64,000 nucleotides of DNA from Rhynchopus sp. YZ270_cl-10. Its lineage: Eukaryota. Below the pieces are notes generated by a model. That model worked only from the letters and a program-made list of their open reading frames with translations, was not told the DNA's origin and made no database searches. Of the stretch, positions 1-55,575 are shown piece after piece (position 1 is the first letter of the stretch; each line of letters starts with the position of its first letter). Made by a program: the position numbers and the translations under genes. The stretch covers positions 310,001-374,000 of the forward strand of contig OZ037836.1 of assembly GCA_964035575.1 (NCBI GenBank), written 5' to 3'.

Positions 1-3000
1 CACCGTCTCACCCGGTACGTCCAACCCCGAGAAGATCTCAAAGTCCAGCATGAGCTCGAGCTGCGTGATGGGGGGCGTTGTGCCATCAGGCCAACGCAAT
101 GCAGCGAGCCATGCCTTCAGCGCCCAGAAGTGGTCTTCCGTCCAGCGTGGACTCTTCTTCATGTACTTGCTCCCCCACAGTACGTTCTCCAGCGGGTTGT
201 AGCTCTCAAGCACTGCACCCTCCTGAGGATTCCAGCCCCAAGGAAAAAGGGATTGGCCCACCACCGCCTGCTTCTTCTTCTTCTGCGAAAACCCATGTTC
301 CACGTCGTACTTCTGCCTTGCCAGCGCGATGCTGACCAGCATCAGTTGCACACGACGCACCGTCTGCTCTCTCTCCGCAACACTCAGCTCCTGCAAGAAT
401 ATCGTCGGCACCAGGCCAAAGTCCAAGAAGCACGGGGGTGCGTCTTTGAGCAAAACCCGGAGTTTTCCGATGTCCTCTCCACGAATTTCGTCCCACTGCG
501 GGCACCACCACCAAGCGTGTCTCCGGTCCTCTATCGCCTCACCACAGTATCGGCACAACGAAGTCTCCACCTCCTTGTTCCTCAGCAGCTGCACCCCCAC
601 CAACTGAGAGCCCGACAAGGCTCCGCGTATCGCGCCCGCCAGGTATCTGTCGGTCGTGCGGTCCTTCCACACTGCGTTCGTCGCCTGGCGATCCACACCT
701 CCCTCAATGCCCTGCATCGACGGCCTCGTCGTCACTGTCAGGCGGTACGCGTGTGCACGGATGCCCTCTCTCAGCTCATGCAGCCATTTGCCCTTGTCCC
801 ACAGACGAACGTGCACCCTCAACCCGATGTGTGTGGTCCAGAAGTCGAAGCTGCTCCACCGCCATCCGTATCGCTCCAGGTCGTCCCACAACAACTCTAT
901 CACACCCTTCTTGTGCACTTCAGTTACCCTTGGGTTGGCAACCCCAGGGTTCTCGCGCCGGAGACGTGCCAGATCTGAAGCCCTGTCACGCCGCCTCACC
1001 TCCCGCTCCGCTCTTCGGTCATGTGCCAGCCTCCACACTTCTTCTGCTTCTCTCCGCATGCCGTCATCTTCTGTCAGTCGGAGAAAGGCCGCCATCCTCC
1101 TCTGCACAATCTCCGCTGGCGCATCAATCCCAACCGGAGATAACACATGCCACACAATGTTCAGCGTGCGCTGCTTCCTGCCCTGCCCCCAGACTGCCAG
1201 TGCTGCCCCTTGCCTCAGCGTCTCTATCGTCTGCTTCGAGAAGTCTGTCACTTCGCACCCATGCAACGCTGCCATCATTGGTCCCCTTGCGCCAATAAGT
1301 GCCTTCTCAGTGAAGGATAATGGCACACTCGAAACCCTCGTAAACACACGGTGCGCAGTAACCGCACGCTCACGCGCGATGGGCCCGAAGTTCCCCTTTC
1401 CAGCCAAAATGTCTGCTCCAACCGCCCCGAACTGCTTCTTGTCGGGGAAGAGCCCGTCGCCAAGTCCAAACTTCGTCTTTGTTCCCTCCTTCGAGGTAAA
1501 CCCTACGCACTTCTCTGCCTTGACCTCCATGTCCGCAGCAGTGATAAACTCCTTCGTCACCCTCGCAGCACCATGCACCTCCGCTTCCGTGTTCGCCACA
1601 GCATACACGTCGTCAGCGTACCCCATGGCGATTGCTCCGGTCCTTCTCGTCACTGCAGATCCCCACACCGCCATCAGCGCGTTCAACAGCACGACAGAAA
1701 GTGGGCATCCTTGCAGGATACCATTTGTCGTACGAAAGGTGCCTCCCACACCTACGTCTCCCAACTTGAAGCGGCGTTCCATGGCAGTGTACGCAGCCCT
1801 CAGTGGTCCAAGAATACGCCAGTGCGCGCCCCACTCCTCCGCCAGCGATAGCACAATCTCATGAGGTACACGATCGAAACATTTGGCGTAGTCGATCGTG
1901 AAGCCCCATACCTGGTCTGTGTCGTCACCCGACAGTACCGCCTTCTCCAGCTTGAGCGACAGATGCCAGTACAGGTGTGCAGTGCTGTGTCCTGCTCTGA
2001 AGCCGTGCTGTTGCTCACCAATCCAGCTTTCCTGCCACTTTATCAGCCTTCGCAACCTCGCTGCCGCCCACAGTCTGTAGATACACGAAGTGATCGTGAT
2101 AGGTCGCTGCTTCAGCGGGGTGTCGTCTTCCCCTTTGGGGATGAGCGCAATGAGTGCTCTCATCAAAGAAGGCGGCCACTCCCCCGTACACTCAATCGCA
2201 TCAAACACATCTGCCAGCCTGTCGAGCAGCACCAGAGGAAGCGCCTTCAGCTCTGCCATGCGCCAACCCTCCACCCCAGCAGAAGTTTGTGTCTTCATCC
2301 TCCCCAGAGTTTGCTGCAACTCCTTCCCCGTCAGCCTGTCCATCTGCATCGCTTGCCCCTTGCCTGCGATGTCTTCTGTAAACTTCTCCCTAAACGCACC
2401 CCAGTCGGGCTCTGGCTTTTCCGCATATCGGCGAAGAATCGGCATCCACGCCTCATGCAGGAGGGTGTCCATCTCCTCAGCGTTGGCGGTGAACTTCCCA
2501 TCCTCGTTCTTCAGGGCAGTCATCTTCCTGTACTGTTCGTCCTTGCAGTATTTGAAGATCGCCTTGGGAGCGTTGTGCCATGCATCCCGTAGGCGCTGCC
2601 GCCAGTCCTCCAGTCGCTTCCGCTTCACTCGGTCCGCAAGCGTTGACACCTTCACTCGCACGGCTCTGCACAGATCCACCAAAGCCTCCTCGCTAGGCAT
2701 ATCCTGTTGCAGTGAGTCGTCGTCCAGCAGAACACGCAGTTCCTTCCGCGCCTTGCTCCAACAATTGCACACGTCATGTGGCGGCACACCACCGTTGCTC
2801 CTCACGTACCACAGCCGACATTCTTCCAGCCTGCCCACGTTCTTCGTCAGCCTTCTCTGGCTCACTGTCAGAGCGTCCCCTTCCTTGCTCTGCTTCGCAG
2901 TCCGGTGCTTCGGCTTCGGGTCAAACGTTTTGCCTCTTCCGCAATACGCCTTCGTCGGGCCCTCAATCTCGCCTTCGCACGCCTGCAGCAAGAAGTCCTC

Positions 3001-3915
3001 TGCCCACTTGTTCCACTGTATCCACCTATCCTGAGGGTGTTGAAGCGCCCCCCACTGCAGCTCCTTGCTCGCAAACGCCTTTTGTGCATTCTTCACGCCT
3101 TGTCCACACTTGTCCAAAGGGAACTGCTTCGGCAGAGTGTACGCGAGCACGATCTGCCTGTACGCACCTACATCCAGCGCTATCTCTACCGGTCTGTGCT
3201 GCGGGAGCCCAGAGTCGTGGACAACCTTCACAGACGACAGCCCTGTGCACGCAGCTCGGTTCAGCAGAACGTAATCGAGCCTCTTGCGGATCTCCTTGCC
3301 GTCTTTCACCGAGAAGTAGGTGTTGTCCGGGGTCGTCCCAAGCACCCTTGCGTGCTCTTCGGCAGTGTCCTTCCACCATCCTGTGTCCAGTGTAGCAGCC
3401 AGCACACCTGATTTCCCTGGACCTGCGTTGAAATCCCCACCAATCACCCCAGGAATATCACCAAGCTCTGCAGCAGCCTCCATCACCTCGCCAAGTATTT
3501 TCTCCCTAGCCTCCGGGTCCGCCGACGGCGCGTAGACGGAGGTCACGTCGATCCACTCGTTGCCTTTGCCGTACGCCACCTTCGCCTTCACCCATCGCGT
3601 TGAGTCCCAGAGGTTCTTTTCCAAGGTTGAGGAGGGCGGGCTCGTGAGCACAGGTATTCCCTCTTGCACCAGAATCGCAACACCACCAGATTTCGCTTCT
3701 TCGGCCGACCTCCATTCCGGCAACTCCTTACCCCACACCACCTGCCAACCCTGCTCGCGGTACTCGATGGAGAGGCGCTTCTGCGTCGTCACGGTGCACT
3801 TTGTCTCTTGTACCAGAACAACTTGAGCATCCTCCGCAACCTTCAGCAGAGAACTCCCGCCTGTCTGCAGCGCCGTCACATTGCTGCACACTATCTTTAG
3901 TGGGGCAAGGCCCAC
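1..3915 (-). CDS. A1 ORF2: APE endonuclease + reverse transcriptase (runs off window)
   Basis: Constant 14637-bp offset to A2 ORF2, so no net indel. YADD is encoded near 1610 and the GTG start matches A2/A3. Confidence 0.9.
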   Translation of the reverse strand, partial: MGLAPLKIVCSNVTALQTGGSSLLKVAEDAQVVLVQETKCTVTTQKRLSIEYREQGWQVVWGKELPEWRSAEEAKSGGVAILVQEGIPVLTSPPSSTLEKNLWDSTRWVKAKVAYGKGNEWIDVTSVYAPSADPEAREKILGEVMEAAAELGDIPGVIGGDFNAGPGKSGVLAATLDTGWWKDTAEEHARVLGTTPDNTYFSVKDGKEIRKRLDYVLLNRAACTGLSSVKVVHDSGLPQHRPVEIALDVGAYRQIVLAYTLPKQFPLDKCGQGVKNAQKAFASKELQWGALQHPQDRWIQWNKWAEDFLLQACEGEIEGPTKAYCGRGKTFDPKPKHRTAKQSKEGDALTVSQRRLTKNVGRLEECRLWYVRSNGGVPPHDVCNCWSKARKELRVLLDDDSLQQDMPSEEALVDLCRAVRVKVSTLADRVKRKRLEDWRQRLRDAWHNAPKAIFKYCKDEQYRKMTALKNEDGKFTANAEEMDTLLHEAWMPILRRYAEKPEPDWGAFREKFTEDIAGKGQAMQMDRLTGKELQQTLGRMKTQTSAGVEGWRMAELKALPLVLLDRLADVFDAIECTGEWPPSLMRALIALIPKGEDDTPLKQRPITITSCIYRLWAAARLRRLIKWQESWIGEQQHGFRAGHSTAHLYWHLSLKLEKAVLSGDDTDQVWGFTIDYAKCFDRVPHEIVLSLAEEWGAHWRILGPLRAAYTAMERRFKLGDVGVGGTFRTTNGILQGCPLSVVLLNALMAVWGSAVTRRTGAIAMGYADDVYAVANTEAEVHGAARVTKEFITAADMEVKAEKCVGFTSKEGTKTKFGLGDGLFPDKKQFGAVGADILAGKGNFGPIARERAVTAHRVFTRVSSVPLSFTEKALIGARGPMMAALHGCEVTDFSKQTIETLRQGAALAVWGQGRKQRTLNIVWHVLSPVGIDAPAEIVQRRMAAFLRLTEDDGMRREAEEVWRLAHDRRAEREVRRRDRASDLARLRRENPGVANPRVTEVHKKGVIELLWDDLERYGWRWSSFDFWTTHIGLRVHVRLWDKGKWLHELREGIRAHAYRLTVTTRPSMQGIEGGVDRQATNAVWKDRTTDRYLAGAIRGALSGSQLVGVQLLRNKEVETSLCRYCGEAIEDRRHAWWWCPQWDEIRGEDIGKLRVLLKDAPPCFLDFGLVPTIFLQELSVAEREQTVRRVQLMLVSIALARQKYDVEHGFSQKKKKQAVVGQSLFPWGWNPQEGAVLESYNPLENVLWGSKYMKKSPRWTEDHFWALKAWLAALRWPDGTTPPITQLELMLDFEIFSGLDVPGETV

Positions 3916-3923
3916 GGTCGTGA

Positions 3924-6791
3924 TTAATACGACCTTTCTCGGTTATTGTCCGTGTCGCGGGGGCGGCTGTTCTCGTCCGTCGTCGTATCTTTCTTCTTCT
4001 CCTCACCGCCACGATCTTGAGCATCCCTGGCCTTGTCCTTGGCCTCGCGAGCTGCCTTCTTCAGCGCCTCGTTCTCCTCCGTGAGCCGCTTGCTCTCCGC
4101 TGCCAGCTGCACGTTCTGGTCCTTGCACTGCTGCACCGTCTCCTTCATCTCAGCACATTCTGCTCTGAGCTGTTCCATGTCGAGAGGCTGCGGCGGTTGC
4201 GCGACTGGTGCCGACTGCTGCGGCTGTCCCATCATCCGCTTCTGTGCCTCCAACATCTCCTTCTGCTGCTCCATGACGCCCTTCATCATCTCCCGCAATT
4301 CCTTCATCTCCTTCTTCATCATCTCTATCTCGTCCTGCGCTGCTGATGAAGCTGCGGGAGGTGCCGGAGCCGCCGGTGCCCCTGTTGCAGGGTGGGGTCG
4401 AGCTGCAGGTGGTGCGTATCCCCTCGCCTTAGCCGCCCACGTGCCAGCGCCGCTCTCTGCTGCTCCTTGCCTCGGTACTGGGAACTGCGCCAGAGGGAAA
4501 CCCCACGGATTCGCACCCACCTTCTGCACACGACGCCCTTCCTTCACCGCACACACCGTCAACACCAATCCACCCACCTCCAGCACCCCTTCTGTGCTCG
4601 GGCACGGCACATCCGACGTAACCGTCCACTTGTGCCCTCGCGACAGCACCTTCACCGTCCAGCTCGCCTCCCTCGCCAGCCCCTCACACAACAGCTGGAC
4701 CGACGTGTTCGCCGGAATTCCCCCAATCTCGTACCTGTGTCCCTGCACGACGACGTCCTCCTGCACAAGAAGCCTCTTCGCAGCCTCCAAGTCCCCCTTC
4801 ATCACCCGCACCGCGTAGCCCCCTTCCCCTACGGCGAGTCCGCGCACGCTATCCTCCATGTTCTCCTCAACAAGGTCCAGCCGTGCCAGAGCAGACTCCA
4901 GCGGTTCCGCCTTCCACAACAACCCACAGTCCCCGTACTCCTTTGCCTGGAAGAGGTGCCGCACAAACACCCCTTCCCGTCCGCTTCTCCTCAGCATGGC
5001 GCACACCACCATGTCCTCCGTCACGTCCACAGACATCTCCATCCATCCTCCTCTCTCCAAGCCGCGTCCACACCGCACCCCCTGCAACCCGTACCACCGA
5101 CGCATGCGTTGCTCTCCCTTTGTGCGTCCCTCCCCCTGGAGCAACATCGTTCTGCCCATCAGCGTAATCAGCTTGCTCGAGAACGTGCTCTCCACCGGCT
5201 TCACCACGTCGTCCAAGTTAGTTGTCATGGACGACAGCCACACTTCTTCCACCTTTGCTCCCCGCTCCGTCTTCACCGCCACCTTCGCCTTCTTCGTGCG
5301 CGCTGCACCCGTACACTTCGAACGGGACACAATCACCATCTGCGGAAGTTGGTGCAGCAACTGTAACCCCTGCAGAAGTTCGCTCGCCTTCCACGCAACT
5401 GCCGCCACCTGCGTCACCCCTTCCACATTGCTGGGCACTGCATCCCACACCGGTATTTTCCATCCCTGGGGCGCCAGGTTCAGTGCATCCTCCGCTGCGC
5501 TCTGGGTCACCGCCGTCGCCTTCTTCTTCCCCTTCACAGCTGTAGCCGGTACGTGCAGTTGCGGTTGTCCCACTGCGCACAGAAGTTCCTCCCCCACCTT
5601 CAACCCTGCCGATTCCACAGCACCGTAGTGTACCCCCTCGAACCCCAGGACTACGTCAGACTCCGTGAAGGTGAGGTTAGCCTTCTCCGGAGTTCCTTCT
5701 GCCAGCTGCCCGTCGGACTGCCCGTCGATCAGCGTAGCCCGTAGCGCGTTCTCCGGTCCAACGTCAAGCACAACAATGCGGACCTTCATCACCTTGGCGA
5801 TCGCATGGAGACACAAATGGTCCCCCCATGTCCCCAGCTGCGCCATGCCTGCCAGGTATGCATCAATGCACCCCTCGTCCACAAATGGGCTGTAGTGTGC
5901 CTTCTGCTCCTTCATCACCTCAACTGCGAGCCTGCGGAAGCCTGCGTGACCATTCGGGGACCGCTCCACAGACCACGCCACCGACCGGAACAGACAGTCC
6001 CCCTTGCCCCCACATTCCTCCCATCGCAACCCCCATCTTTCCAGGTGTCCCTTGACACCTGGCTGCACGGCAGCTGCCAGCGTCTCCGTCCTGCATCCCC
6101 TTGCGGCGTACCCCCCTCCTGCAACCAGCTGGGCGTTGCTCTCTGCCTCCTTCATCCCCTTCCCCGCCTTCGCGCAGTGCTGCAGCGATACCCTTATCCC
6201 CCTCTTCTTCAACTCGCCCAGCAGCGCCTTCACCTTCTCCAGCCTCGGCTTCAGCAACGACGAGTCGCAGGCGTGCCCCTCAGCCACCTGCCTCCAGACC
6301 ACCAAGTGCGTGACCCACACGCGCGCGTGGGTGCCCTTCGGGTACGACCCGTCGGCCACCCCTTGAAGCCCGAGCAGGATGCCCTCGTACGCGGCTTCTG
6401 CCTTGGTGATGTTTGCCAGGCGGCGGGTTACTTCCCAGTGCGTTCCTGGTTCCTCCTCCGTCGCATCACGCGCCAGCGCACACAGCCCCGTCGTGTCCCG
6501 CACCTTCTCGCCCGTCACTACTCCGATGAAGACATCGGGATCCTTCCTCTCCTCCCCTGCACTGCGCTTCATGCCGCCTGCCCCCGGGTAGGCGGGCTGC
6601 CGTAGCCCCTCAGTCCAGTGCGCCTGCTCCGCCGCCGCCGTCACCTCGTCACTGCAATAGCAGTTCCACGACCTGCAGCACACAGGCGCCGGCGGGTGTG
6701 GCGTCCACTTGGCCGATCCGTGTGACGGATCGTTGCCCGGGATACTCCGCGTGGAGGCTGGACGTGACTTCGACACCATGTACGAAAACAT
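3924..6791 (-). CDS. A1 ORF1: degenerate RNase H-like + OTU protease + RRM-like + coiled coil
   Basis: 955-aa ORF with OTU motifs KGDCLFRS, WGDH and GVHYGAV and a C-terminal heptad-rich segment. The true start may be the later MKRSAG. Confidence 0.88.
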   Translation of the reverse strand: MFSYMVSKSRPASTRSIPGNDPSHGSAKWTPHPPAPVCCRSWNCYCSDEVTAAAEQAHWTEGLRQPAYPGAGGMKRSAGEERKDPDVFIGVVTGEKVRDTTGLCALARDATEEEPGTHWEVTRRLANITKAEAAYEGILLGLQGVADGSYPKGTHARVWVTHLVVWRQVAEGHACDSSLLKPRLEKVKALLGELKKRGIRVSLQHCAKAGKGMKEAESNAQLVAGGGYAARGCRTETLAAAVQPGVKGHLERWGLRWEECGGKGDCLFRSVAWSVERSPNGHAGFRRLAVEVMKEQKAHYSPFVDEGCIDAYLAGMAQLGTWGDHLCLHAIAKVMKVRIVVLDVGPENALRATLIDGQSDGQLAEGTPEKANLTFTESDVVLGFEGVHYGAVESAGLKVGEELLCAVGQPQLHVPATAVKGKKKATAVTQSAAEDALNLAPQGWKIPVWDAVPSNVEGVTQVAAVAWKASELLQGLQLLHQLPQMVIVSRSKCTGAARTKKAKVAVKTERGAKVEEVWLSSMTTNLDDVVKPVESTFSSKLITLMGRTMLLQGEGRTKGEQRMRRWYGLQGVRCGRGLERGGWMEMSVDVTEDMVVCAMLRRSGREGVFVRHLFQAKEYGDCGLLWKAEPLESALARLDLVEENMEDSVRGLAVGEGGYAVRVMKGDLEAAKRLLVQEDVVVQGHRYEIGGIPANTSVQLLCEGLAREASWTVKVLSRGHKWTVTSDVPCPSTEGVLEVGGLVLTVCAVKEGRRVQKVGANPWGFPLAQFPVPRQGAAESGAGTWAAKARGYAPPAARPHPATGAPAAPAPPAASSAAQDEIEMMKKEMKELREMMKGVMEQQKEMLEAQKRMMGQPQQSAPVAQPPQPLDMEQLRAECAEMKETVQQCKDQNVQLAAESKRLTEENEALKKAAREAKDKARDAQDRGGEEKKKDTTTDENSRPRDTDNNRERSY

Positions 6792-6831
6792 TGTTTATAT
6801 TCTTTCTTTTTGTGTACGTTGTGTGTATCCC
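6702..6831 (-). ncRNA. HDV-like self-cleaving ribozyme candidate at A1 5' end
   Basis: P1 GGGATAC/GTATCCC, P2 CGTCCA/TGGACG, L3 TCCACGC, GG-GCAA, P4 CGATCCG/CGGATCG, J4/2 GCCAAG. Confidence 0.8.
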
Positions 6832-7435
6832 CCAGGTTGGCTAAAGAGTTGCAGCCGTAAAGAAAGCACCTCTCAATCATCGTAACATTCTCGAATGGTG
6901 TCAGATCCAGGGTGGTTAAAGAGTTGCAGTCGCAAAGAAAGTGACTGCCAATCTCCGTCACATTGCTCAACCCAGAGAGGTCAATACTTGTCAACGAGGT
7001 GCACTCCTCGAGGAAGTTGTCTCCAATGTGAGTCACAATGGACTCAGCACTGAGATCAAGTCTCGTCAACGAAGTGCCTGTCAAGAACCCATCAGGAATG
7101 ACAGTCGCAACCTCCGCCTGCAGAAGCAAACACGCCACCTCAGGATCCTCCACCTCCTCCAACCGCTCTGGAGTCAGGTCTCTCTCACCCAACGCATGAA
7201 GTGCTGCTATGGCTTCGTACCTCTGTGTTTTTGTGAGGATGATTGTGTCACCAGCACTCAGCTGCGTCATGTCCGCTCCTTCTCCCATCGCTTCGTCTCC
7301 GAAACTCATGCAAAAGCTGTTTTCAGGCAACCCCATTGCAGTCGCCACCTTCCGCCGCAAGCCCTCCACTGTGTCATCTGCACCCACCTCGACTGTGTGC
7401 TGGTTCGCTCTGAAATCCTCGAAGTGCACGTCCAT
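6832..7435 (-). pseudogene. UBL-LRR gene, 5' half, interrupted by A1
   Basis: MDVHFEDF...VEVGADDTVEGLRRKVA...LSAGDTIILT followed by LRRs ending at GCNSLANL at the element junction. Confidence 0.9.
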
Positions 7436-10479: not shown

Positions 10480-11073
10480 AGTACACAGTACACAGTACAC
10501 AGTACACAGTACACAGTACACAGTACACAGTACACAGTACACAGTACACAGTACACAGTACACAGTACACAGTACACAGTACACAGTACACAGTACACAG
10601 TACACAGTACACAGTACACAGTACACAGTACACAGTACACAGTACACAGTACACAGTACACAGTACACAGTACACAGTACACAGTACACAGTACACAGTA
10701 CACAGTACACAGTACACAGTACACAGTACACAGTACACAGTACACAGTACACAGTACACAGTACACAGTACACAGTACACAGTACACAGTACACAGTACA
10801 CAGTACACAGTACACAGTACACAGTACACAGTACACAGTACACAGTACACAGTACACAGTACACAGTACACAGTACACAGTACACAGTACACAGTACACA
10901 GTACACAGTACACAGTACACAGTACACAGTACACAGTACACAGTACACAGTACACAGTACACAGTACACAGTACACAGTACACAGTACACAGTACACAGT
11001 ACACAGTACACAGTACACAGTACACAGTACACAGTACACAGCACACAGTACACAGTACACAGTACACAGTACA
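10480..11073. repeat. (AGTACAC)n 7-bp satellite, about 85 units
   Basis: Near-perfect tandem repeat with one variant unit near 11042. Confidence 0.98.
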
Positions 11074-13708: not shown

Positions 13709-13785
13709 TAAACTTGTTGACGTGACCCATCCCCACCTTCTCAGATGAACTGAGAGGTGAGAAAGGCGCCACGTGACCACCTTCG

Positions 13786-16700
13786 TTATCGCGGGGCAAA
13801 CCCGAGACGTCCCTGGGACATGTCGTGGTGCCCTTTCCCGCAACAGACCTGAGGAGACGCCAGCATCGGCAATCCGTCCTTCTTCCTCTTCCGTCCCGCT
13901 TGCACACATGCACCGCAAGCACCCCTCCCGTGGGCCACACAGTTGTGGTGCTTCTGACAGCACTGCTTCATCGACACGTTCCCCGCACCCGCACACTGTC
14001 CGCACATCGAGAAGTTATGCACCTCACATGCCTCACGCGCCTCCACACAGTCACCCAAAATAAGCTCATCACAATGGTGCGTCGCACAACACGCCGTGAT
14101 GGAGATGTTGTTGTGCTCGCAGTCCCCGCATCGCATCTTGGTGTGTATGTCACACACCCGCATGGTCCCCACCTTCCTCCTTACGTCCACACGCACAGCC
14201 GGTGTCTGCCGCCTGCGTGCCTCCTGCCGTCGAGTCTGCTCTGCCGCAACTGCAGCTATCGCAGCTCTCTTACGCACCTCCTCTGCCTGCTTCTGCTCTT
14301 CCTTCGCTTCCTTCCAGCGTTCGCTCTTTGCTGAGCGTTCTTCCGGAGTGGAAGTGTGAGCTACAACCGCGTCGTCACCCCACCTCGCCTTCGTCTTTTC
14401 TTTTTGTCGGGAGAGTGCTCTCCGCGACGTCGCCTTCTCCTGCAACTCCTTCAGGTACCCTTCAACCCCCGCCGCATGCGTCAGCACAGGTCGCACAGAA
14501 TACCCCGTCATGATCCCCGCACCCAGTTCCTGTAAGTGGTGCACCTCCCTCTTCTCCACTCCTTTCCATACGTCCCTTCCATGCGCCATCGTTTTCGCCG
14601 TCCGCATCATGGCACCAAAAGATTCTGCCCTCTTCAACACCGTCTCACCCGGTACGTCCAACCCCGAGAAGATCTCAAAGTCCAGCATGAGCTCGAGCTG
14701 CGTGATGGGGGGCGTTGTGCCATCAGGCCAACGCAATGCAGCGAGCCATGCCTTCAGCGCCCAGAAGTGGTCTTCCGTCCAGCGTGGACTCTTCTTCATG
14801 TGCTTGCTCCCCCACAGTACGTTCTCCAGCGGGTTGTAGCTCTCAAGCACTGCACCCTCCGGAGGATTCCAGCCCCAAGGAAAAAGGGATTGGCCCACCA
14901 CCGCCTGCTTCTTCTTCTTCTGCGAAAACCCATGTTCGACGTCGTACTTCTGCCTTGCCAGCGCGATGTTGACCAGCATCAGTTGCACACGTCGCACAGT
15001 CTGCTCTCTCTCCGCAACACTCAGCTCCTGCAAGAATATCGTCGGCACCAGGCCAAAGTCCAAGAAGCACGGGGGTGCGTCTTTGAGCAAAACCCGGAGT
15101 TTTCCGATGTCCTCTCCACGAATTTCGTCCCACTGCGGGCACCACCACCAAGCGTGTCTCCGGTCCTCTATCGCCTCACCACAGTATCGGCACAACGAAG
15201 TCTCCACCTCCTTGTTCCTCAGCAGCTGCACCCCCACCAACTGAGAGCCCGACAAGGCTCCGCGTATCGCGCCCGCCAGGTATCTGTCGGTCGTGCGGTC
15301 CTTCCACACTGCGTTCGTCGCCTGGCGATCCACACCTCCCTCAATGCCCTGCATTGACGGCCTCGTCGTCACTGTCAGGCGGTACGCGTGTGCACGGATG
15401 CCCTCTCTCAGCTCATGCAGCCATTTGCCCTTGTCCCACAGACGAACGTGCACCCTCAACCCGATGTGTGTGGTCCAGAAGTCGAAGCTGCTCCACCGCC
15501 ATCCGTATCGCTCCAGGTCGTCCCACAACAACTCTATCACACCCTTCTTGTGCACTTCAGTTACCCTTGGGTTGGCAACCCCAGGGTTCTCACGCCGGAG
15601 ACGTGCCAGCTCTGAAGCCCTGTCACGCCGCCTCACCTCCCGCTCCGCTCTTCGGTCATGTGCCAGCCTCCACACTTCTTCTGCTTCTCTCCGCATGCCG
15701 TCATCTTCTGTCAGTCGGAGAAAGGCCGCCATCCTCCTCTGCACAATCTCCGCTGGCGCATCAATCCCAACCGGAGATAACACATGCCACACAATGTTCA
15801 GCGTGCGCTGCTTCCTGCCCTGCCCCCAGACTGCCAGTGCTGCCCCTTGCCTCAGCGTCTCTATCGTCTGCTTCGAGAAGTCTGTCACTTCGCACCCATG
15901 CAACGCTGCCATCATTGGTCCCCTTGCGCCAATAAGTGCCTTCTCAGTGAAGGATAATGGCACACTCGAAACCCTCGTAAATACACGGTGCGCAGTAACC
16001 GCACGCTCACGCGCGATGGGCCCGAAGTTCCCCTTTCCAGCCAAAATGTCTGCTCCAACCGCCCCGAACTGCTTCTTGTCGGGGAAGAACCCGTCGCCAA
16101 GTCCAAACTTCGTCTTTGTTCCCTCCTTCGAGGTAAACCCTACGCACTTCTCTGCCTTGACCTCCATGTCCGCAGCAGTGATAAACTCCTTCGTCACCCT
16201 CGCAGCACCATGCACCTCCGCTTCCGTGTTCGCCACAGCATACACGTCGTCAGCGTACCCCATGGCGATTGCTCCGGTCCTTCTCGTCACTGCAGATCCC
16301 CACACCGCCATCAGCGCGTTCAACAGCACGACAGAAAGCGGGCATCCTTGCAGGATACCATTTGTCGTACGGAAAGCGCCTCCCACACCTACGTCTCCCA
16401 ACTTGAAGCGGCGTTCCATGGCAGTGTACGCCGCCCTCAGTGGTCCAAGAATGCGCCAGTGCGCGCCCCACTCCTCCGCCAGCGATAGCACAATCTCATG
16501 AGGTACACGATCGAAACATTTGGCGTAGTCAATCGTGAAGCCCCATACCTGGTCTGTGTCGTCACCCGACAGCACCGCCTTCTCCAGTTTGAGCGACAAA
16601 TGCCAGTACAGGTGTGCAGTGCTGTGTCCTGCTCTGAAGCCGTGCTGTTGCTCACCAATCCAGCTTTCCTGCCACTTTATCAGCCTTCGCAACCTCGCTG

Positions 16701-18552
16701 CCGCCCACAGTCTGTACACACACGAAGTAATCGTGATTGGTCGCTGCTTCAGCGGAGTGTCGTCTTCCCCTTTGGGGATGAGCGCAATGAGTGCTCTCAT
16801 CAAAGAAGGCGGCCACTCTCCCGTACACTCAATCGCATCAAACACATCTGCCAGCCTGTCGAGCAGCACCAGAGGAAGCGCCTTCAGCTCTGCCATGCGC
16901 CAACCCTCCACCCCAGCAGAAGTTTGTGTCTTCATCCTCCCCAGAGTTTGCTGCAACTCCTTCCCCGTCAGCCTGTCCATCTGCATCGCTTGTCCCTTGC
17001 CTGCGATGTCTTCTGCAAACTTCTCCCTGAACGCACCCCAGTCGGGCTCTGGCTTTTCCGCATATCGGCGAAGAATCGGCATCCACGCCTCATGCAGGAG
17101 GGTGTCCATCTCCTCAGCGTTGGCGGTGAACTTCCCATCCTCGTTCTTCAGGGCAGTCATCTTCCTGTACTGCTCGTCCTTGCAGTATTTGAAGATCGCC
17201 TTGGGAGCATTGTGCCATGCATCCCGTAGGCGCTGCCGCCAGTCCTCCAGTCGCTTCCGCTTCACTCGGTCCGCAAGCGTTGACACCTTCACTCGCACGG
17301 CTCTGCACAGATCCACCAAAGCCTCCTCGCTAGGCATATCCTGTTGCAGTGAGTCGTCGTCCAGCAGAACACGCAGTTCCTTCCGCGCCTTGCTCCAACA
17401 ATTGCACACGTCATGTGGCGGCACACCACCGTTGCTCCTCACGTACCACAGTCGACATTCTTCCAGCCTGCCCACGTTCTTCGTCAGCCTTCTCTGGCTC
17501 ACCGTCAGAGCGTCCCCTTCCTTGCTCTGCTTCGCAGTCCGGTGCTTCGGTGTGGGGTCGAACGTTCTGCCTCTACCGCAATACGCCTTCGTCGGGCCCT
17601 CAATCTCGCCTTCGCACGCCTGCAGCAAGAAGTCCTCTGCCCACTTGTTCCACTGGATCCACCTATCCTGAGGGTGTTGAAGCGCCCCCCACTGCAGCTC
17701 CTTGTTCGCAAACGCCTTTTGTGCCGTCTTCACACCCTGTCCACACTTCTCCAAAGGGAACTGCTTCGGCAGAGTGTACGCGAGCACGATCTGCCTGTAC
17801 GCACCTACATCCAGCGCTATCTCTACCGGTCTGTGCTGCGGGAGCCCAGAGTCGTGGACAACCTTCACAGACGACAGCCCTGTGCACGCAGCTCGGTTCA
17901 GCAGAACGTAATCGAGCCTCTTGCGGATCTCCTTGCCCTCCTTCACTGAGAAGTAGGTGTTCTCCGGGGTCGTCCCAAGCACCCTTGCGTGCTCTTCGGC
18001 AGTGTCCTTCCACCATCCTGTGTCTAGCGTAGCAGCCAGCACACCTGATTTCCCGGGACCTGCGTTGAAGTCCCCACCAATCACCCCAGGAATGTCACCA
18101 AGCTCTGCAGCAGCCTCCATCACCTCGCCAAGTATTTTCTCCCTAGCCTCCGGGTCCGCCGACGGCGCGTAGACGGAGGTCACGTCGATCCACTCGTTGC
18201 CTTTGCCGTACGCCACCTTCGCCTTCACCCATCGCGTTGAGTCCCAGAGGTTCTTTTCCAAGGTTGAGGAGGGCGGGCTCGTGAGCACAGGTATTCCCTC
18301 TTGCACCAGAATCGCAACACCACCAGATTTCGCTTCTTCGGCCGACCTCCATTCCGGCAACTCCTTACCCCACACCACCTGCCAACCCTGCTTGCGGTAC
18401 TCGATGGAGAGGCGCTTCTGCGTCGTCACGGTGCACTTTGTCTCTTGTACCAGAACAACTTGAGCATCCTCCGCAACCTTCAGCAGAGAACTCCCGCCTG
18501 TCTGCAGCGCCGTCACATTGCTGCACACTATCTTTAGTGGGGCAAGGCCCAC
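13786..18552 (-). CDS. A2 ORF2: APE + RT + CCHC knuckle + Cys/His repeats (1588 aa, GTG start)
   Basis: APE motifs VQET, GGDFNA, RLDYVL and QHRPV. RT motifs IDYAKCFDRV, QGCPLS and YADD. Knuckle CRYC..H..C. Confidence 0.95.
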   Translation of the reverse strand: MGLAPLKIVCSNVTALQTGGSSLLKVAEDAQVVLVQETKCTVTTQKRLSIEYRKQGWQVVWGKELPEWRSAEEAKSGGVAILVQEGIPVLTSPPSSTLEKNLWDSTRWVKAKVAYGKGNEWIDVTSVYAPSADPEAREKILGEVMEAAAELGDIPGVIGGDFNAGPGKSGVLAATLDTGWWKDTAEEHARVLGTTPENTYFSVKEGKEIRKRLDYVLLNRAACTGLSSVKVVHDSGLPQHRPVEIALDVGAYRQIVLAYTLPKQFPLEKCGQGVKTAQKAFANKELQWGALQHPQDRWIQWNKWAEDFLLQACEGEIEGPTKAYCGRGRTFDPTPKHRTAKQSKEGDALTVSQRRLTKNVGRLEECRLWYVRSNGGVPPHDVCNCWSKARKELRVLLDDDSLQQDMPSEEALVDLCRAVRVKVSTLADRVKRKRLEDWRQRLRDAWHNAPKAIFKYCKDEQYRKMTALKNEDGKFTANAEEMDTLLHEAWMPILRRYAEKPEPDWGAFREKFAEDIAGKGQAMQMDRLTGKELQQTLGRMKTQTSAGVEGWRMAELKALPLVLLDRLADVFDAIECTGEWPPSLMRALIALIPKGEDDTPLKQRPITITSCVYRLWAAARLRRLIKWQESWIGEQQHGFRAGHSTAHLYWHLSLKLEKAVLSGDDTDQVWGFTIDYAKCFDRVPHEIVLSLAEEWGAHWRILGPLRAAYTAMERRFKLGDVGVGGAFRTTNGILQGCPLSVVLLNALMAVWGSAVTRRTGAIAMGYADDVYAVANTEAEVHGAARVTKEFITAADMEVKAEKCVGFTSKEGTKTKFGLGDGFFPDKKQFGAVGADILAGKGNFGPIARERAVTAHRVFTRVSSVPLSFTEKALIGARGPMMAALHGCEVTDFSKQTIETLRQGAALAVWGQGRKQRTLNIVWHVLSPVGIDAPAEIVQRRMAAFLRLTEDDGMRREAEEVWRLAHDRRAEREVRRRDRASELARLRRENPGVANPRVTEVHKKGVIELLWDDLERYGWRWSSFDFWTTHIGLRVHVRLWDKGKWLHELREGIRAHAYRLTVTTRPSMQGIEGGVDRQATNAVWKDRTTDRYLAGAIRGALSGSQLVGVQLLRNKEVETSLCRYCGEAIEDRRHAWWWCPQWDEIRGEDIGKLRVLLKDAPPCFLDFGLVPTIFLQELSVAEREQTVRRVQLMLVNIALARQKYDVEHGFSQKKKKQAVVGQSLFPWGWNPPEGAVLESYNPLENVLWGSKHMKKSPRWTEDHFWALKAWLAALRWPDGTTPPITQLELMLDFEIFSGLDVPGETVLKRAESFGAMMRTAKTMAHGRDVWKGVEKREVHHLQELGAGIMTGYSVRPVLTHAAGVEGYLKELQEKATSRRALSRQKEKTKARWGDDAVVAHTSTPEERSAKSERWKEAKEEQKQAEEVRKRAAIAAVAAEQTRRQEARRRQTPAVRVDVRRKVGTMRVCDIHTKMRCGDCEHNNISITACCATHHCDELILGDCVEAREACEVHNFSMCGQCAGAGNVSMKQCCQKHHNCVAHGRGACGACVQAGRKRKKDGLPMLASPQVCCGKGHHDMSQGRLGFAPR

Positions 18553-18560
18553 GGTCGTGA

Positions 18561-21446
18561 TTAATACGACCCTCCTTCTCGCCTCTGGTCCGTGTCGCGG
18601 GGGCGGCTGTTCTCGTCCGTCGTCGTATCCTTCTTCTCCTCACCGCCATCTGCACGACGATCTTGAGCGTTCCTGGCCTTGTCCTTGGCCTCGCGAGCTG
18701 CCTTCTTCAGCGCCTCGTTCTCCTCCGTGAGCCGCTTGCTCTCCGCTGCCAGCTGCACATTCTGCTCCTTGCACTGCTGCATCGTCTCCTTCATCTCAGC
18801 ACAGTCTGCTCTGAGCTGTTCCATGCCAAGAGGCTGCGGCGGCTGCTCGACTGGTGCCGACTGCTGCGGTTGTCCCATCATCCGCTTCTGTGCCTCCAAC
18901 ATTTCCTTCTGCTGTTCCATGACGCCCTTCATCATCTCCCGCAATTCCTTCATTTCCTTCTTCATCAGCTCGATCTCTTCCTGCGCTGCTGATGAAGCTG
19001 CGGGAGGTGCCGGAGCCGCCGGTGCCCCTGTTGCAGGGTGGGGCCGAGCTGCAGGTGGTGCGTATCCCCTCGCCTTAGCCGCCCACGTGCCAGCGCCGCT
19101 CTCTGCTGCTCCTTGCCTCGGTACTGGGAACTGCGCCAGAGGGAAACCCCACGGATTCGCACCCACCTTCTGCACACGACGCCCTTCCTTCACCGCACAC
19201 ACCGTCAACACCAATCCACCCACCTCCAGCACCCCTTCTGTGCTCGGGCACGGCACATCCGACGTAACCGTCCACTTGTGCCCTCGCGACAGCACCTTCA
19301 CCGTCCAGCTCGCCTCTCTCGCCAGCCCCTCACACAACAGCTGGACCGACGTGTTCGCCGGAATTCCCCCAATCTCGTATCTGTGTCCCTGCACGACGAC
19401 GTCCTCCTGCACAAGAAGCCTCTTCGCAGCCTCCAAGTCCCCCTTCATGACACGCACCGCGTAGCCCCCTTCCCCTACGGCGAGTCCGCGCACGCTATCC
19501 TCCAGGTTCTCCTCCGCAAGGTCCAGCCGTGCCAGAGCAGACTCCAGCGGTTCCGCCTTCCACAACAACCCACAGTCCCCGTACTCCTTTGCCTGGAAGA
19601 GGTGCCGCACAAACACCCCTTCCCGTCCGCTTCTCTTCAGCATGGCGCACACCATGTCCTCCGTCACGTCCACAGACATCTCCATCCATCCTCCTTTCTC
19701 CAAGCCGCGTCCACACCGCACCCCCTGCAACCCGTACCACCGACGCATGCGTTGCTCTCCCTTTGTGCGTCCTTCTCCCGCCCTGATGAGGGTCCGGCCC
19801 ATCAGCGTAACCAGCTTGCTCGTGAACGCAGTACTCTCCTCCACCGGCTTCACCACCTTGTCCAGGTCCGACGTCATGGTGCCCAGCCAGACTTCCTCCA
19901 TACGTGCGCCTCGGTCGGTCCGCACTGCCACCTTCACCTTCCTTGTACGTGTCGCACCTGTGCACTTCGCGCGTGAGACAAGCACCACCTGGGGGAGTGT
20001 GTGCAGCAATTCCAACCCCTGCACGAGTTCACCCGACCACGCAACTGCCGCCACCTGCGTCACCCCTTCCACAATATCAGGTACTGCCTCCCACACCGGA
20101 ATTTTCCACCCTGGAGAGTCCAAGACTAAGTTCAGCGGGGCCTCCGCATCCGTGCGCACCGATGGCGCCTTCTTCCTGCCCGTCACAGCCGTGCCCGGCA
20201 CGTGCAACTGCGGTTGCCCCACTGCGCACATGATCTCCTCGCCCGCCTGCAGCCCTGCCGACGTCACTGCACCGTAGTGCACTCCTCCCTCGTACGCCAG
20301 AACGATGTCTGACTCCCGGAACGCCAGGTTCGCCTTCTCCGCTGACCCCTCCTTCAATGCCCCGTCCGTTTGCCCGTCAATCACTGTAGCCCTCAGCACA
20401 TTCCCCGGCCCGACGTCCATCACCACAACACGGGTCCGCATCGCCCTCGCAATCGCGTGGAGACACAGATGGTCCCCCCACGTCCCCAGCTGCGCCATCG
20501 CGGCCAGATACCCCTCTGCCCCCGCTTCCCCTTCGATGAATGGGCTGTAAAACGCCGCATCCTTCCTCATCACCCCCACCGCCAGCTTGCGGAACCCTGC
20601 ATGCCCGTTCGGGGACGACTCCGCAGACCACGCCACTGATCGGAAGAGACAGTCCCCTTTGCCCCCGCACTCCTCCCATCTCATACCCCAAGGCTCCAAT
20701 AACCCCTTGATCCCTGGCTGCGTCGTCGGCGCCTGCTTCTCCGCCGTGCATCCCCTTGCGGCGTAGCTACCACCTGCCACCAGCGTCGCGCTCGACTCCG
20801 CTGCCGTCATCCCCTGTCCCGCCCTCGCACTGTGCAACACGGAGACCTGTATCCCCCTCGTCTTGAGGTTGGATACCATCGATCTCACCTTCTCCAGTCG
20901 TGGCCTGAGCAGCTGCGAGTCGCACGGTTGCCCCGCGGATACCTGCTTCCACACCTGCAGATGCGACACCCACACCCGTGCATGCACCCCTTTCTTGTAG
21001 GATCCGTCCGTGACACCTCGCAGCCCCAAGAGGATTCCTTCGTATGCCGCCTCCGCCTTCGTCACTCCTGCCAGTCGCTTCGTCAACTCCCAGTGCGTCA
21101 CCGGCTCGTCCTCCGTTGCTTCACGTGCCAGCGCACACAGCCCCGTCGCGTCCCGCACCTTCTCGCCAGGCGCGACCCCAACGAAGATGTCGGGGTCTCT
21201 CTTCTCGTCGTCGTCAGCTGCACGCTTCATGCCTCCAGCACCCGGGTACAGCAGTTGGTGCCCAATAGCCCTGTGCGCCAGCTCAGCTGCCGACGTCGTC
21301 TCCTCGCTGCACCTGCAGTTCCAGGAATCGCAACACACAGGCGCCGGCGGGTGTGGGGTCCATTTGGCCGATCCGTGTGACGGATCGTTGCCCGGGATAC
21401 TCCGCGTGGAGGCTGGACGTGACTTCGACACCATGTACGAAAACAT
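18561..21446 (-). CDS. A2 ORF1 (961 aa), variant with diverged N-terminal half
   Basis: Same architecture as A1 ORF1, with OTU KGDCLFRS...WGDH...HYGAV retained. Confidence 0.88.
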   Translation of the reverse strand: MFSYMVSKSRPASTRSIPGNDPSHGSAKWTPHPPAPVCCDSWNCRCSEETTSAAELAHRAIGHQLLYPGAGGMKRAADDDEKRDPDIFVGVAPGEKVRDATGLCALAREATEDEPVTHWELTKRLAGVTKAEAAYEGILLGLRGVTDGSYKKGVHARVWVSHLQVWKQVSAGQPCDSQLLRPRLEKVRSMVSNLKTRGIQVSVLHSARAGQGMTAAESSATLVAGGSYAARGCTAEKQAPTTQPGIKGLLEPWGMRWEECGGKGDCLFRSVAWSAESSPNGHAGFRKLAVGVMRKDAAFYSPFIEGEAGAEGYLAAMAQLGTWGDHLCLHAIARAMRTRVVVMDVGPGNVLRATVIDGQTDGALKEGSAEKANLAFRESDIVLAYEGGVHYGAVTSAGLQAGEEIMCAVGQPQLHVPGTAVTGRKKAPSVRTDAEAPLNLVLDSPGWKIPVWEAVPDIVEGVTQVAAVAWSGELVQGLELLHTLPQVVLVSRAKCTGATRTRKVKVAVRTDRGARMEEVWLGTMTSDLDKVVKPVEESTAFTSKLVTLMGRTLIRAGEGRTKGEQRMRRWYGLQGVRCGRGLEKGGWMEMSVDVTEDMVCAMLKRSGREGVFVRHLFQAKEYGDCGLLWKAEPLESALARLDLAEENLEDSVRGLAVGEGGYAVRVMKGDLEAAKRLLVQEDVVVQGHRYEIGGIPANTSVQLLCEGLAREASWTVKVLSRGHKWTVTSDVPCPSTEGVLEVGGLVLTVCAVKEGRRVQKVGANPWGFPLAQFPVPRQGAAESGAGTWAAKARGYAPPAARPHPATGAPAAPAPPAASSAAQEEIELMKKEMKELREMMKGVMEQQKEMLEAQKRMMGQPQQSAPVEQPPQPLGMEQLRADCAEMKETMQQCKEQNVQLAAESKRLTEENEALKKAAREAKDKARNAQDRRADGGEEKKDTTTDENSRPRDTDQRREGGSY

Positions 21447-21486
21447 TGTTTATATTCTTTCTTTTTGTGTACGTTGTGTGTATCCC
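21357..21486 (-). ncRNA. HDV-like ribozyme candidate at A2 5' end
   Basis: Same fold as A1. J4/2 is GCCAAA and one terminal P2 pair is lost. Confidence 0.78.
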
Positions 21487-33976: not shown

Positions 33977-34053
33977 TAAACTTGTTGACGTGACCCATCC
34001 CCACCTTCTCAGATGAACTGAGAGGTGAGAAAGGCGCCACGTGACCACCTTCG

Positions 34054-37000
34054 TTATCGCGGGGCAAACCCGAGACGTCCCTGGGACGTGTCGTGGTGCC
34101 CTTTCCCGCAACAGACCTGAGGAGACGCCAGCATCGGCAATCCGTCCTTCTTCCTCTTCCGTCCCGCCTGCACACATGCACCGCAAGCACCCCTCCCGTG
34201 AGCCACACAGTTGTGGTGCTTCTGACAGCACTGCTTCATCGACACGTTCCCCGCACCCGCACACTGTCCGCACATCGAGAAGTTATGCACCTCACACGCC
34301 TCACGCGCCTCCACACAGTCACCCAAAATAAGCTCATCACAATGGTGCGTCGCACAGCACGCCGTGATGGGGATGTTGTTGTGCTCGCAGTCCCCGCATC
34401 GCATCTTGGTGTGTATGTCACACACCCGCATGGTACCCACCTTCCTCCTTACGTCCACACGCACAGCCGGTGTCTGCCGCCTGCGTGCCTCCTGCCGTCG
34501 AGTCTGCTCTGCCGCAACTGCAGCTATCGCAGCTCTCTTACGCACCTCCTCTGCCTGCTTCTGCTCTTCCTTCGCTTCCTTCCAGCGTTCGCTCTTTGCT
34601 GAGCGTTCTTCCGGAGTGGAAGTGTGAGCTACAACCGCGTCGTCACCCCACCTCGCCTTCGTCTTTTCTTTTTGTCGGGAGAGTGCTCTCCGCGACGTCG
34701 CCTTCTCCTGCAACTCCTTCAGGTACCCTTCAACCCCCGCCGCATGCGTCAGCACAGGTCGCACAGAATACCCCGTCATGATCCCCGCACCCAGTTCCTG
34801 TAAGTGGTGCACCTCCCTCTTCTCCACTCCTTTCCACACGTCCCTTCCACGCGCCATCGTTTTCGCCGTCCGCATCATGGCACCAAAAGATTCTGCCCTC
34901 TTCAACACCGTCTCACCCGGTACGTCCAACCCCGAGAAGATCTCAAAGTCCAGCATGAGCTCGAGCTGCGTGATGGGGGGCGTTGTGCCATCAGGCCAAC
35001 GCAATGCAGCGAGCCATGCCTTCAGCGCCCAGAAGTGGTCTTCCGTCCAGCGAGGACTCTTCTTCATGTGCTTGCTCCCCCACAGTACGTTCTCCAGCGG
35101 GTTGTAGCTCTCAAGCACTGCACCCTCCGGAGGATTCCAGCCCCAAGGAAAAAGGGATTGGCCCACCACCGCCTGCTTCTTCTTCTTCTGCGAAAACCCA
35201 TGTTCGACGTCGTACTTCTGCCTTGCCAGCGCGATGTTGACCAGCATCAGTTGCACACGTCGCACAGTCTGCTCTCTCTCCGCAACACTCAGCTCCTGCA
35301 AGAATATCGTCGGCACCAGGCCAAAGTCCAAGAAGCACGGGGGTGCGTCTTTGAGCAAAACCCGGAGTTTTCCGATGTCCTCTCCACGAATTTCGTCCCA
35401 CTGCGGGCACCACCACCAAGCGTGTCTCCGGTCCTCTATCGCCTCACCACAGTATCGGCACAACGAAGTCTCCACCTCCTTGTTCCTCAGCAGCTGCACC
35501 CCCACCAACTGAGAGCCCGACAAGGCTCCGCGTATCGCGCCCGCCAGGTATCTGTCGGTCGTGCGGTCCTTCCACACTGCGTTCGTCGCCTGGCGATCCA
35601 CACCTCCCTCAATGCCCTGCATCGACGGCCTTGTCGTCACTGTCAGGCGGTACGCGTGTGCACGGATGCCCTCTCTCAGCTCATGCAGCCATTTGCCCTT
35701 GTCCCACAGACGAACGTGCACCCTCAACCCGATGTGTGTGGTCCAGAAGTCGAAGCTGCTCCACCGCCATCCGTATCGCTCCAGGTCGTCCCACAACAAC
35801 TCTATCACACCCTTCTTGTGCACTTCAGTTACCCTTGGGTTGGCAACCCCAGGGTTCTCACGCCGGAGACGTGCCAGCTCTGAAGCCCTGTCACGCCGCC
35901 TCACCTCCCGCTCCGCTCTTCGGTCATGTGCCAGCCTCCACACTTCTTCTGCTTCTCTCCGCATGCCGTCATCTTCTGTCAGTCGGAGAAAGGCCGCCAT
36001 CCTCCTCTGCACAATCTCCGCTGGCGCATCAATCCCAACCGGAGATAACACATGCCACACAATGTTCAGCGTGCGCTGCTTCCTGCCCTGCCCCCAGACT
36101 GCCAGTGCTGCCCCTTGCCTCAGCGTCTCTATCGTCTGCTTCGAGAAGTCTGTCACTTCGCACCCATGCAACGCTGCCATCATTGGTCCCCTTGCGCCAA
36201 TAAGTGCCTTCTCAGTGAAGGATAATGGCACACTCGAAACCCTCGTAAATACACGGTGCGCAGTAACCGCACGCTCACGCGCGATGGGCCCGAAGTTCCC
36301 CTTTCCTGCCAAAATGTCTGCTCCAACCGCCCCGAACTGCTTCTTGTCGGGGAAGAACCCGTCGCCAAGTCCAAACTTCGTCTTTGTTCCCTCCTTCGAG
36401 GTAAATCCTACGCACTTCTCTGCCTTGACCTCCATGTCCGCAGCAGTGATAAACTCCTTCGTCACCCTCGCAGCACCATGCACCTCCGCTTCCGTGTTCG
36501 CCACAGCATACACGTCGTCAGCGTACCCCATGGCGATTGCTCCCGTCCTTCTCGTCACTGCAGATCCCCACACCGCCATCAGCGCGTTCAACAGCACGAC
36601 AGAAAGCGGGCATCCTTGCAGGATACCATTTGTCGTACGGAAAGCGCCTCCCACACCTACGTCTCCCAACTTGAAGCGGCGTTCCATGGCAGTGTACGCC
36701 GCCCTCAGTGGTCCAAGAATGCGCCAGTGCGCGCCCCACTCCTCCGCCAGCGATAGCACAATCTCATGAGGTACACGATCGAAACATTTGGCGTAGTCAA
36801 TCGTGAAGCCCCATACCTGGTCTGTGTCGTCACCCGACAGCACCGCCTTCTCCAGTTTGAGTGACAAATGCCAGTACAGGTGGGCAGTGCTGTGTCCTGC
36901 TCTGAAGCCGTGCTGTTGCTCACCAATCCAGCTTTCCTGCCACTTTATCAGCCTTCGCAACCTCGCTGCCGCCCACAGTCTGTACACACACGAAGTAATC

Positions 37001-38820: not shown

Positions 38821-38828
38821 GGTCGTGA

Positions 38829-41693: not shown

Positions 41694-41733
41694 TGTTTAT
41701 ATTCTTTCTTTTTGTGTACGTTGTGTGTATCCC
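41604..41733 (-). ncRNA. HDV-like ribozyme candidate at A3 5' end
   Basis: Same sequence and fold as the A1 candidate. Confidence 0.8.
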
Positions 41734-46498: not shown

Positions 46499-46565
46499 GG
46501 GGGCCCGTTTTCGATGCATGCACCCCTATCCGAGATAGGTGATACAATACATCGTGGGGGTGATA

Positions 46566-51551: not shown

Positions 51552-51563
51552 CGCACCACACCG

Positions 51564-55238: not shown

Positions 55239-55275
55239 CGCGTCGAGGCTGCCCCCCGCCGCCGTCCTTCTTCCC

Positions 55276-55359
55276 CGCGCTTTAGCAGACGCCTCCCCCC
55301 ATAGAGGAGGGGGGCGTCTCCCGAGGGTACCCCGTGGAGGCGCGTCGTCTCTCACCCTC
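55276..55359 (-). ncRNA. HDV-like ribozyme candidate at B 5' end
   Basis: P1 GAGGGTG/TACCCTC, CC-TCCACGG-GG, GG, P4 AGACGCC../..GGCGTCT, J4/2 GCTAAA, P2 CGCG/CGCG. Confidence 0.68.
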
Positions 55360-55575
55360 TTTCTGCGTTTTTGTGAGGTTGATTGTGTCACCAGCACTCA
55401 GCTGCGTCATGTCCGCTCCTTCTCCCATCGCTTCGTCTCCGAAACTCATGCAAAAGCTGTCTTCAGGCAACCCCATTGCAGACGCCACCTTCCGCCGCAG
55501 GTCCTCCACTGTGTCATCTGCACCCACCTCGACTGTGTGCTGATTCGCTTTGAAATCCTCGAAGTGCACGTCCAT
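55360..55575 (-). pseudogene. 5' (UBL) piece of doubly interrupted UBL-LRR gene
   Basis: MDVHFEDFKANQ...LSAGDTINLTKTQK, then element B. Confidence 0.9.

Follow-up and report, generated by a model that had tools for sequence, protein, structure and literature searches.

Why should a retrotransposon carry a deubiquitinase-like OTU domain in its first open reading frame (ORF1), and is there any meaning in its presence among host genes that encode ubiquitin-like (UBL) domains? These questions are raised by a 64,000-nucleotide stretch of Rhynchopus DNA, the whole of which is referred to here as the window. It holds an array of 11 minus-strand host genes encoding a UBL domain followed by 25-residue leucine-rich repeats (LRRs), with about 70 LRR units in the window.

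The locus and its retrotransposons

About half of the window (33,149 of 64,000 bases) consists of the elements A and B, which are APE-type non-LTR retrotransposons. Pfam finds an endonuclease (APE, PF03372) and a reverse transcriptase (RT, PF00078) in ORF2 of both. A is present in four copies, three of which contain ORF1, and B in one; target-site duplications of 17-20 bp flank all four copies that have both ends in the window, the 5'-truncated A4 included.

1..6831, minus strand: element A copy 1 (A1); 3' end beyond the window, ORF2 APE-RT in 1-3942
3924..6791, minus strand: A1 ORF1, with RNase H-like fold, OTU domain, conserved core and coiled coil
6832..7435, minus strand: 5' part of a host UBL-LRR gene (one of the 11), split by A1
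13709..21486, minus strand: full-length copy 2 of element A (A2), inserted in an LRR unit with a 19-bp target duplication
30429-32402: HSP70 gene, within the stretch of UBL-LRR genes
33977..41733, minus strand: full-length copy 3 of element A (A3), inserted in an LRR unit with an 18-bp target duplication
43878..45799, minus strand: element A copy 4 (A4), 5'-truncated, lacking ORF1; 17-bp duplication, in an LRR unit
46499..55359, minus strand: full-length element B, inserted where a UBL domain ends, with a 20-bp target duplication
46566-51563, minus strand: B ORF2
51564-55397, minus strand: B ORF1
55360..55575, minus strand: host UBL domain, split at its end by B

A2 is a mosaic (18561-21449, minus strand). 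Its ORF1 product differs from that of A1 over residues 46-555, which are about 70% alike, and is nearly identical on both sides, suggesting recombination or template switching between subfamilies.

In A2 (21449-21490, minus strand) and A3 (41696-41737, minus strand), the interrupted host frame enters the element and stops three bases before the ATG of ORF1, which would fit termination-reinitiation on host transcripts; at A1 the junction with the host frame is shifted by one base relative to this arrangement. In A, the last bases of ORF1 are overlapped by ORF2, which is read in a different frame (3924-3945, minus strand); the first methionine of ORF2 is residue 154, inside the endonuclease, which suggests a non-AUG start or a frameshift. 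In B, ORF2 follows the ORF1 stop codon in the same frame, and a predicted ribosome-skip motif lies before the endonuclease.

51288..51335, minus strand: 2A-like motif (predicted), ending DVEEHPGP, with His for the usual Asn

Motifs of this kind also occur in three of 255 related proteins; A has none.

The host genes show some features of their own. Several UBL-LRR proteins (11123-12226, 28726-29787, 57346-58461 and 61742-63070, minus strand) have CaaX-like C-termini (CVCM, CVFM) that hint at prenylation, while others end in a basic tail resembling a nuclear localization signal. A 14-base tandem array and an array of short palindromic repeats lie between UBL-LRR genes (10480-11073 and 61135-61254). 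The segment 26713-27676 (minus strand) is a 95% copy of 29777-30734, which comprises the 3' end of HSP70 and DNA downstream of it; the copy adjoins a truncated UBL-LRR gene and shows no duplication at its ends.

An OTU domain in ORF1

A preliminary description had proposed, from motifs in A1, A2 and B, that ORF1 contains an OTU-like domain. The motif positions are confirmed on the minus strand by codon coordinates, and the domain is present in A3 as well, which had not been named. Pfam OTU (PF02338) is found in all four ORF1 proteins at 48.4, 41.3, 48.4 and 39.6 bits, above the curated cut-off of 23.3 bits, and in none of the other 14 window proteins scanned.

5610..6044, minus strand: OTU of A1 ORF1, residues 251-395, with Cys267, Trp323 and His389; the residue at His+2 is Gly
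20259..20699, minus strand: OTU of A2 ORF1 (from Pfam and codon positions)
40512..40946, minus strand: OTU of A3 ORF1, identical in protein sequence to A1 here
54792..55184, minus strand: OTU of B ORF1; the residue at His+2 is Leu

The catalytic codons of A1 lie at 5996-5994 (Cys) and 5630-5628 (His), and the corresponding Cys/His codons start at 20651/20279 in A2, 40898/40532 in A3 and 55136/54806 in B, all on the minus strand.

The closest solved relative is OTUD3 (E 1.6e-8 by sequence, 6e-18 by profile). An AlphaFold2 model, built on a 91-row alignment made of OTU homologues, has the OTU fold with a pLDDT of 91.4 and is matched by Foldseek to OTUD3 (4bou; TM 0.75/0.86, E 8e-12). A single-sequence model of the RNase H-like part together with the OTU domain reached a pLDDT of only 44.5 and had no PDB match at E 0.001, and a homologue search with ORF1 residues 75-420 returned only the element's own two clusters. 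Judged by profile and predicted fold, ORF1 of A and B contains a true OTU domain. It shares with the OTUD3/OTUD1/OTUD5 type the profile, the predicted fold, the Cys and His, and the WG and HY motifs, but differs in having xGDC for DGNC, in lacking Asp or Asn at His+2 and in lying inside a transposon protein.

The active site is a Cys-His dyad

The preliminary description had drawn attention to the loss of the Asp three residues before the catalytic Cys. Lys (A) or Asn (B) is indeed found at Cys-3, with Asp instead of Asn at Cys-1, but the wrong Asp had been flagged: the telling loss, overlooked at the time, is at His+2, where A has Gly and B has Leu instead of Asp or Asn. The third catalytic residue of OTU proteases is that at His+2 (PMC3744425, PMC3968130, PMC7396840), whilst the residue at Cys-3 supplies the oxyanion hole with a main-chain nitrogen (PMC3744425). 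As this position contributes only its backbone nitrogen, Lys or Asn there is probably harmless, and we reject it as a mark of inactivity.

An alignment of 174 OTU domains, comprising six found in ORF1 (A1, A2, B, P0106 of the B family, P0110 and P0175), eight of the ORF2 type and 160 others, sets these changes in context. All six ORF1-type rows retain the catalytic Cys and His, have Asp at Cys-1 and a residue other than Asp at Cys-3, and lack the D/N/E of a canonical triad at His+2 (G, G, L, L, M and R), giving the pattern xGDC...HY[G/L/M/R]. By comparison, Asp occupies His+2 in 8/8 ORF2-type rows; among the 160 others, Cys-3 is Asp in 150 and His+2 is D/N/E in 120, and both are lost in seven. 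Since the third catalytic residue is lost and the Cys and His are kept, the ORF1-type OTUs are, as far as can be read from the alignment, Cys-His dyads. The loss of both acidic positions means that substrate or chemistry may have changed. Residues of the GlyGly channel and Cys loop are retained (W323-G324, R287 and Y390), the WG aromatic, Arg and HY features having been associated with binding of GlyGly and with the Cys loop (PMC7396840). The OTU of A also has a 20-residue insertion before the His strand.

Loss of the acid at His+2 is described as causing complete, partial or no loss of activity (PMC7396840). A selfish replicon offers a precedent in PRO/DUB of TYMV, an OTU whose active site is likewise reduced to Cys and His (PMC3744425, PMC3968130); this enzyme is active, with poor deubiquitinase activity (PMC3744425). 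However, TYMV PRO has neither the oxyanion loop nor the Trp, both of which are kept in the OTUs of A and B, and a polyprotein is its proven substrate.

A dead RNase H fold beside the OTU domain

The OTU domain of A is preceded by a second recognisable fold.

6120..6542, minus strand: RNase H-like fold of A1 ORF1, residues 85-225; it ends in LVAGG, shortly ahead of the OTU domain

The RNase H signal of this part is weak when it is taken alone, and a PDB sequence search with it returned nothing relevant. In the ESM Atlas, however, it matches RVT_3/RNase_H clusters at 0.92, the ten best named matches all belonging to one clan, and hhalign pairs it with the RNase H of related elements at 90.8% (E 1.2e-6). 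Alignment to the latter indicates that the second and third of the D-E-D-D acids have been replaced, and the first is not recognisable; on this evidence the segment is a catalytically dead RNase H fold. It is subject to purifying selection, is common to the relatives in Diplonema papillatum and is missing from B, and Pfam detects no RNase H in ORF2 of either A or B. A YPGAGG sequence before the fold was considered as a cleavage site and rejected; it is more likely the motif found ahead of strand 1 in RNase H.

The GlyGly at the border between the two folds bears on another proposal of the preliminary description, that the domain processes a polyprotein. A dyad OTU might cut ORF1p after GlyGly, for example at the RNase H/OTU border, freeing the N-terminal part; in B, for in-frame insertions, that part would be a UBL leader of host origin. 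TYMV PRO, a known dyad OTU, processes a polyprotein in comparable fashion (PMC3968130, PMC3744425). GlyGly does occur 30-41 residues before the Cys in A1 and A2 (LVAGG), in P0254/P0255 of D. papillatum (ACKGG) and in B, and P0106 and P0071 are in-frame fusions of a UBL to an element. Nevertheless, GlyGly is common in these proteins (9 to 19 per ORF1), P0110 has none at that place, and the glycine may merely cap the last RNase H helix. The difference from TYMV PRO in the oxyanion loop and Trp also tells against this reading, as do the separate frames of ORF1 and ORF2, the predicted skip that precedes ORF2 in B, and the window copy of B itself, which is out of frame with the host UBL and has its own Met. 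Self-processing is weakly supported and unlikely.

Conservation of the domain

Comparison of A1 with A2 gives a dN/dS of 0.155 for the OTU domain (bootstrap 0.08-0.27) at a dS of 1.13, alongside 0.19 for the RNase H fold and 0.24 for the other flanking part. Given these flanking values, constraint at this depth is evident but not peculiar to the domain. Its dN/dS is, within the bootstrap range, no lower than that of the dead RNase H, so selection here can keep a fold without catalysis.

Over longer distances the OTU domain stands out. The D. papillatum elements DIPPA_28703, DIPPA_28372 and DIPPA_07431 are multi-copy (11, 9 and 4 members) and have the same ORF1 layout; against them the OTU of A is 40-41% identical and other parts 20-27%, making the OTU the best conserved part of ORF1. 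Of the 12 cysteines in residues 251-760 of A1, only the catalytic one is kept in A2, D. papillatum and B, as are three of ten histidines; conservation of the Cys and His across related elements is supported. These comparisons indicate that the OTU domain is under purifying selection and is an old part of ORF1 in this LINE group.

They also bear on whether the domain is an enzyme at all. A near-dead pseudo-enzyme might be maintained in ORF1p for ubiquitin binding or as a structural part, in the manner of the dead RNase H beside it. The loss of two conserved acidic positions in 6/6 ORF1-type rows and the similarity in dN/dS to the RNase H part would fit, and a bacterial OTU of the Burkholderia ambifaria type, BurkOTU, is described as binding one substrate without cleaving it (PMC7396840). 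Against this, Cys and His, unlike the remaining 11 cysteines, are kept across lineages 30-40% alike, and the OTU has kept its nucleophile where the RNase H has lost its catalytic acids. A pseudo-enzyme therefore appears improbable.

OTU domains in related elements

Among 103 relatives identified by RT, 36 are from D. papillatum (36-46% identity), and the host is thus probably another diplonemid. Seven of the 103 have an OTU in frame before the endonuclease (four whole, and three partial and weak, two of these with E near 0.1), and they are scattered over the RT tree. The best 150 of 14,727 profile matches add P0116, P0118, P0119 and P0153, with canonical OTUs before the endonuclease; the Pfam scan covered 29 proteins. 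ORF1 of the remaining relatives is a protein of its own and lies outside these searches, so that absence of an OTU cannot be read from these counts. The canonical OTUs in related elements imply that ubiquitin handling recurs in the clade. One of the profile matches, P0140, has two OTU domains and an rve integrase domain and is Ginger-like.

In the OTU tree the ORF1-type and ORF2-type domains form separate groups. The ORF1-type rows group together with support of 0.979 in FastTree and 94/90 in IQ-TREE, the latter from 51 of the 174 rows and just under the bar. The RTs of A and B do not pair in the RT tree, in which deep support is weak, 9 of 104 rows were dropped and no reference elements were included.

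Insertion sites and the host UBLs

A2, A3, A4 and the 5' junction of A1 lie in one LRR-unit register to within one base, in four different genes (4/4). Run X1 contains another A 5' junction at this register; in run X3 there is an A 3' junction that does not lie in an in-register LRR. For B, two of the 255 related proteins contain a host UBL: P0106, a full-length B-family join, and P0071, a join to truncated ORF2. Both are in-frame fusions of other UBL paralogues at B's site, the only kind of join that can appear among these proteins, and with the window copy they make three B-family insertions at the UBL end. The protein P0106 would combine a UBL with an OTU. Short copies of the B 3' tail (53-90 bases) in unrelated flanks speak against strict specificity, the UBL flank being covered in two of four runs. 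The last 50-90 bases of B (46499-46555) occur as short insertions in other runs at a depth far above that of the body, which suggests truncated copies or a SINE-like partner. That B is fully dispersed was considered and rejected, as P0106 and P0071 join at the same UBL spot.

Of the two elements, only B lies at the end of a UBL domain; A lands in the LRR part of the host genes. In target-primed reverse transcription, nucleotide-exact sites point to the endonuclease. As the sites here are fixed to the nucleotide, targeting of the UBL-LRR genes is likely to be due to the endonuclease reading DNA and not to the OTU domain.

The preliminary description had gone further, suggesting that the OTU domain engages the host UBL-LRR proteins. 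It might have been remodelled to bind them, as a decoy, an inhibitor or a tether to the genes, thereby linking protease and target. The RTs of A and B are unpaired in the tree and yet both elements have a derived OTU and lie in one gene family, A in one LRR register (4/4 and the further 5' junction) and B at the UBL end in three cases. Yet a C-terminal GlyGly is found in 0/11 window UBLs and in 0/12 of the UBL alignment, so the host UBLs are not canonical OTU substrates. Moreover, nucleotide-fixed sites are as expected of a DNA-reading endonuclease, large gene families are known as safe targets (RHS/ingi; PMC7563717), B tails and one A 3' junction lie elsewhere, and the same ORF1 OTU is present in D. 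papillatum; OTU is an old module of this LINE clade. Binding to UBL-LRR proteins is distinctly unlikely, and a direct link between the OTU and the genes in which the elements have landed is probably coincidental. More elaborate, and just as hard to credit, is the idea that the host uses the UBL-LRR family for surveillance, shuttling foreign proteins to the proteasome, and that the retrotransposons would attack this system both by knockout at two fixed sites and with an OTU remodelled into a dyad that grips the GlyGly-less UBL in place of ubiquitin.

A proposed role for the OTU domain in the element's own cycle

In LINEs, ORF1p is the many-copy coat of the RNA. One study, further to that cited below, reportedly concerns the ubiquitin-driven turnover of mammalian L1 ORF1p. 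Degradation of LINE-1 ORF1p driven by ubiquitin is described as restricting mobility in mammals (PMC5570191).

Against this background, protection of the ribonucleoprotein from ubiquitin-based restriction, as envisaged in the preliminary description, best fits the sequence data among the three functions proposed there. We put at about even the prospects of a weak Cys-His deubiquitinase, carried by the element, that would protect its ribonucleoprotein from ubiquitin-driven turnover. We infer that the OTU of ORF1p would be catalytically active, that it would act in cis and in many copies on the ribonucleoprotein, and that its substrate would be ubiquitin, which it would strip from the element's own proteins; the element would then benefit as these proteins escape turnover by the proteasome. 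It counts against this reading that both window elements with the odd OTU have hit one gene family.

An active deubiquitinase might instead work on host substrates, at the insertion site or at stalled ribosomes, and not on the element's proteins. A DNA-repair or chromatin role has been proposed for the OTU/Ulp1 domains of Ginger (PMC2836005), and rescue at 2A stalls has also been proposed (PMC13405545), to which the 2A-like motifs of B and three related proteins could be related; A, however, carries the same type of OTU without such a motif. There is only a slim chance that host substrates are the target, and protection of the element's own ribonucleoprotein remains the preferred reading.

Relation to known systems

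Deubiquitinase domains in transposons are already in print, including one OTU on a LINE ORF2p, from Symbiodinium necroappetens (PMC13405545). That element and those encoding P0061, P0066, P0070, P0095, P0118 and P0153 are likewise APE-RT non-LTR retrotransposons of the same broad clade, but their OTUs are canonical and lie before the endonuclease, whereas those of A and B are dyads in ORF1. Captured ubiquitin or SUMO protease domains are also known in other element classes or from other protease families, with OTU in Ginger1 and Helentrons, Ulp1 in NeSL/Utopia and Josephin in Dualen (PMC2836005, PMC4067079, PMC4640811, 10.1101/2021.04.23.441226); the accessible text of these sources reports no function test of such a domain. 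In trypanosomes, ingi/RIME of the RHS genes are likewise euglenozoan APE LINEs with a fixed site in a protein-coding multigene family (PMC7563717). A and B differ from ingi, whose single ORF includes RNase H, in having two ORFs each and in using two different sites of the UBL-LRR family.

The genome paper on D. papillatum (PMC10161547), in the text available, gives no characterisation of that species' elements, and the portions seen of PMC12278014 and PMC4822132 hold nothing specific for comparison with A and B. In the openly accessible papers searched, no ORF1-borne OTU was found in a non-LTR element, and nothing on the UBL-LRR family. The OTU in ORF1, its dyad site, its dead RNase H partner and the targeting of UBL-LRR genes at two sites are new in that sense.

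Ubiquitin and SUMO protease domains recur in transposons, and the domain described here is a small (145 residues), naturally altered OTU, predicted to be well folded, in ORF1 of recently active LINEs whose sister elements carry canonical OTUs. Comparison of dyad with triad and of ORF1 with ORF2 may thus bear on whether retrotransposons counter ubiquitin-based restriction. In addition, A and B insert site-specifically at two positions in a protein-coding gene family, making them a second euglenozoan example after RHS and ingi.
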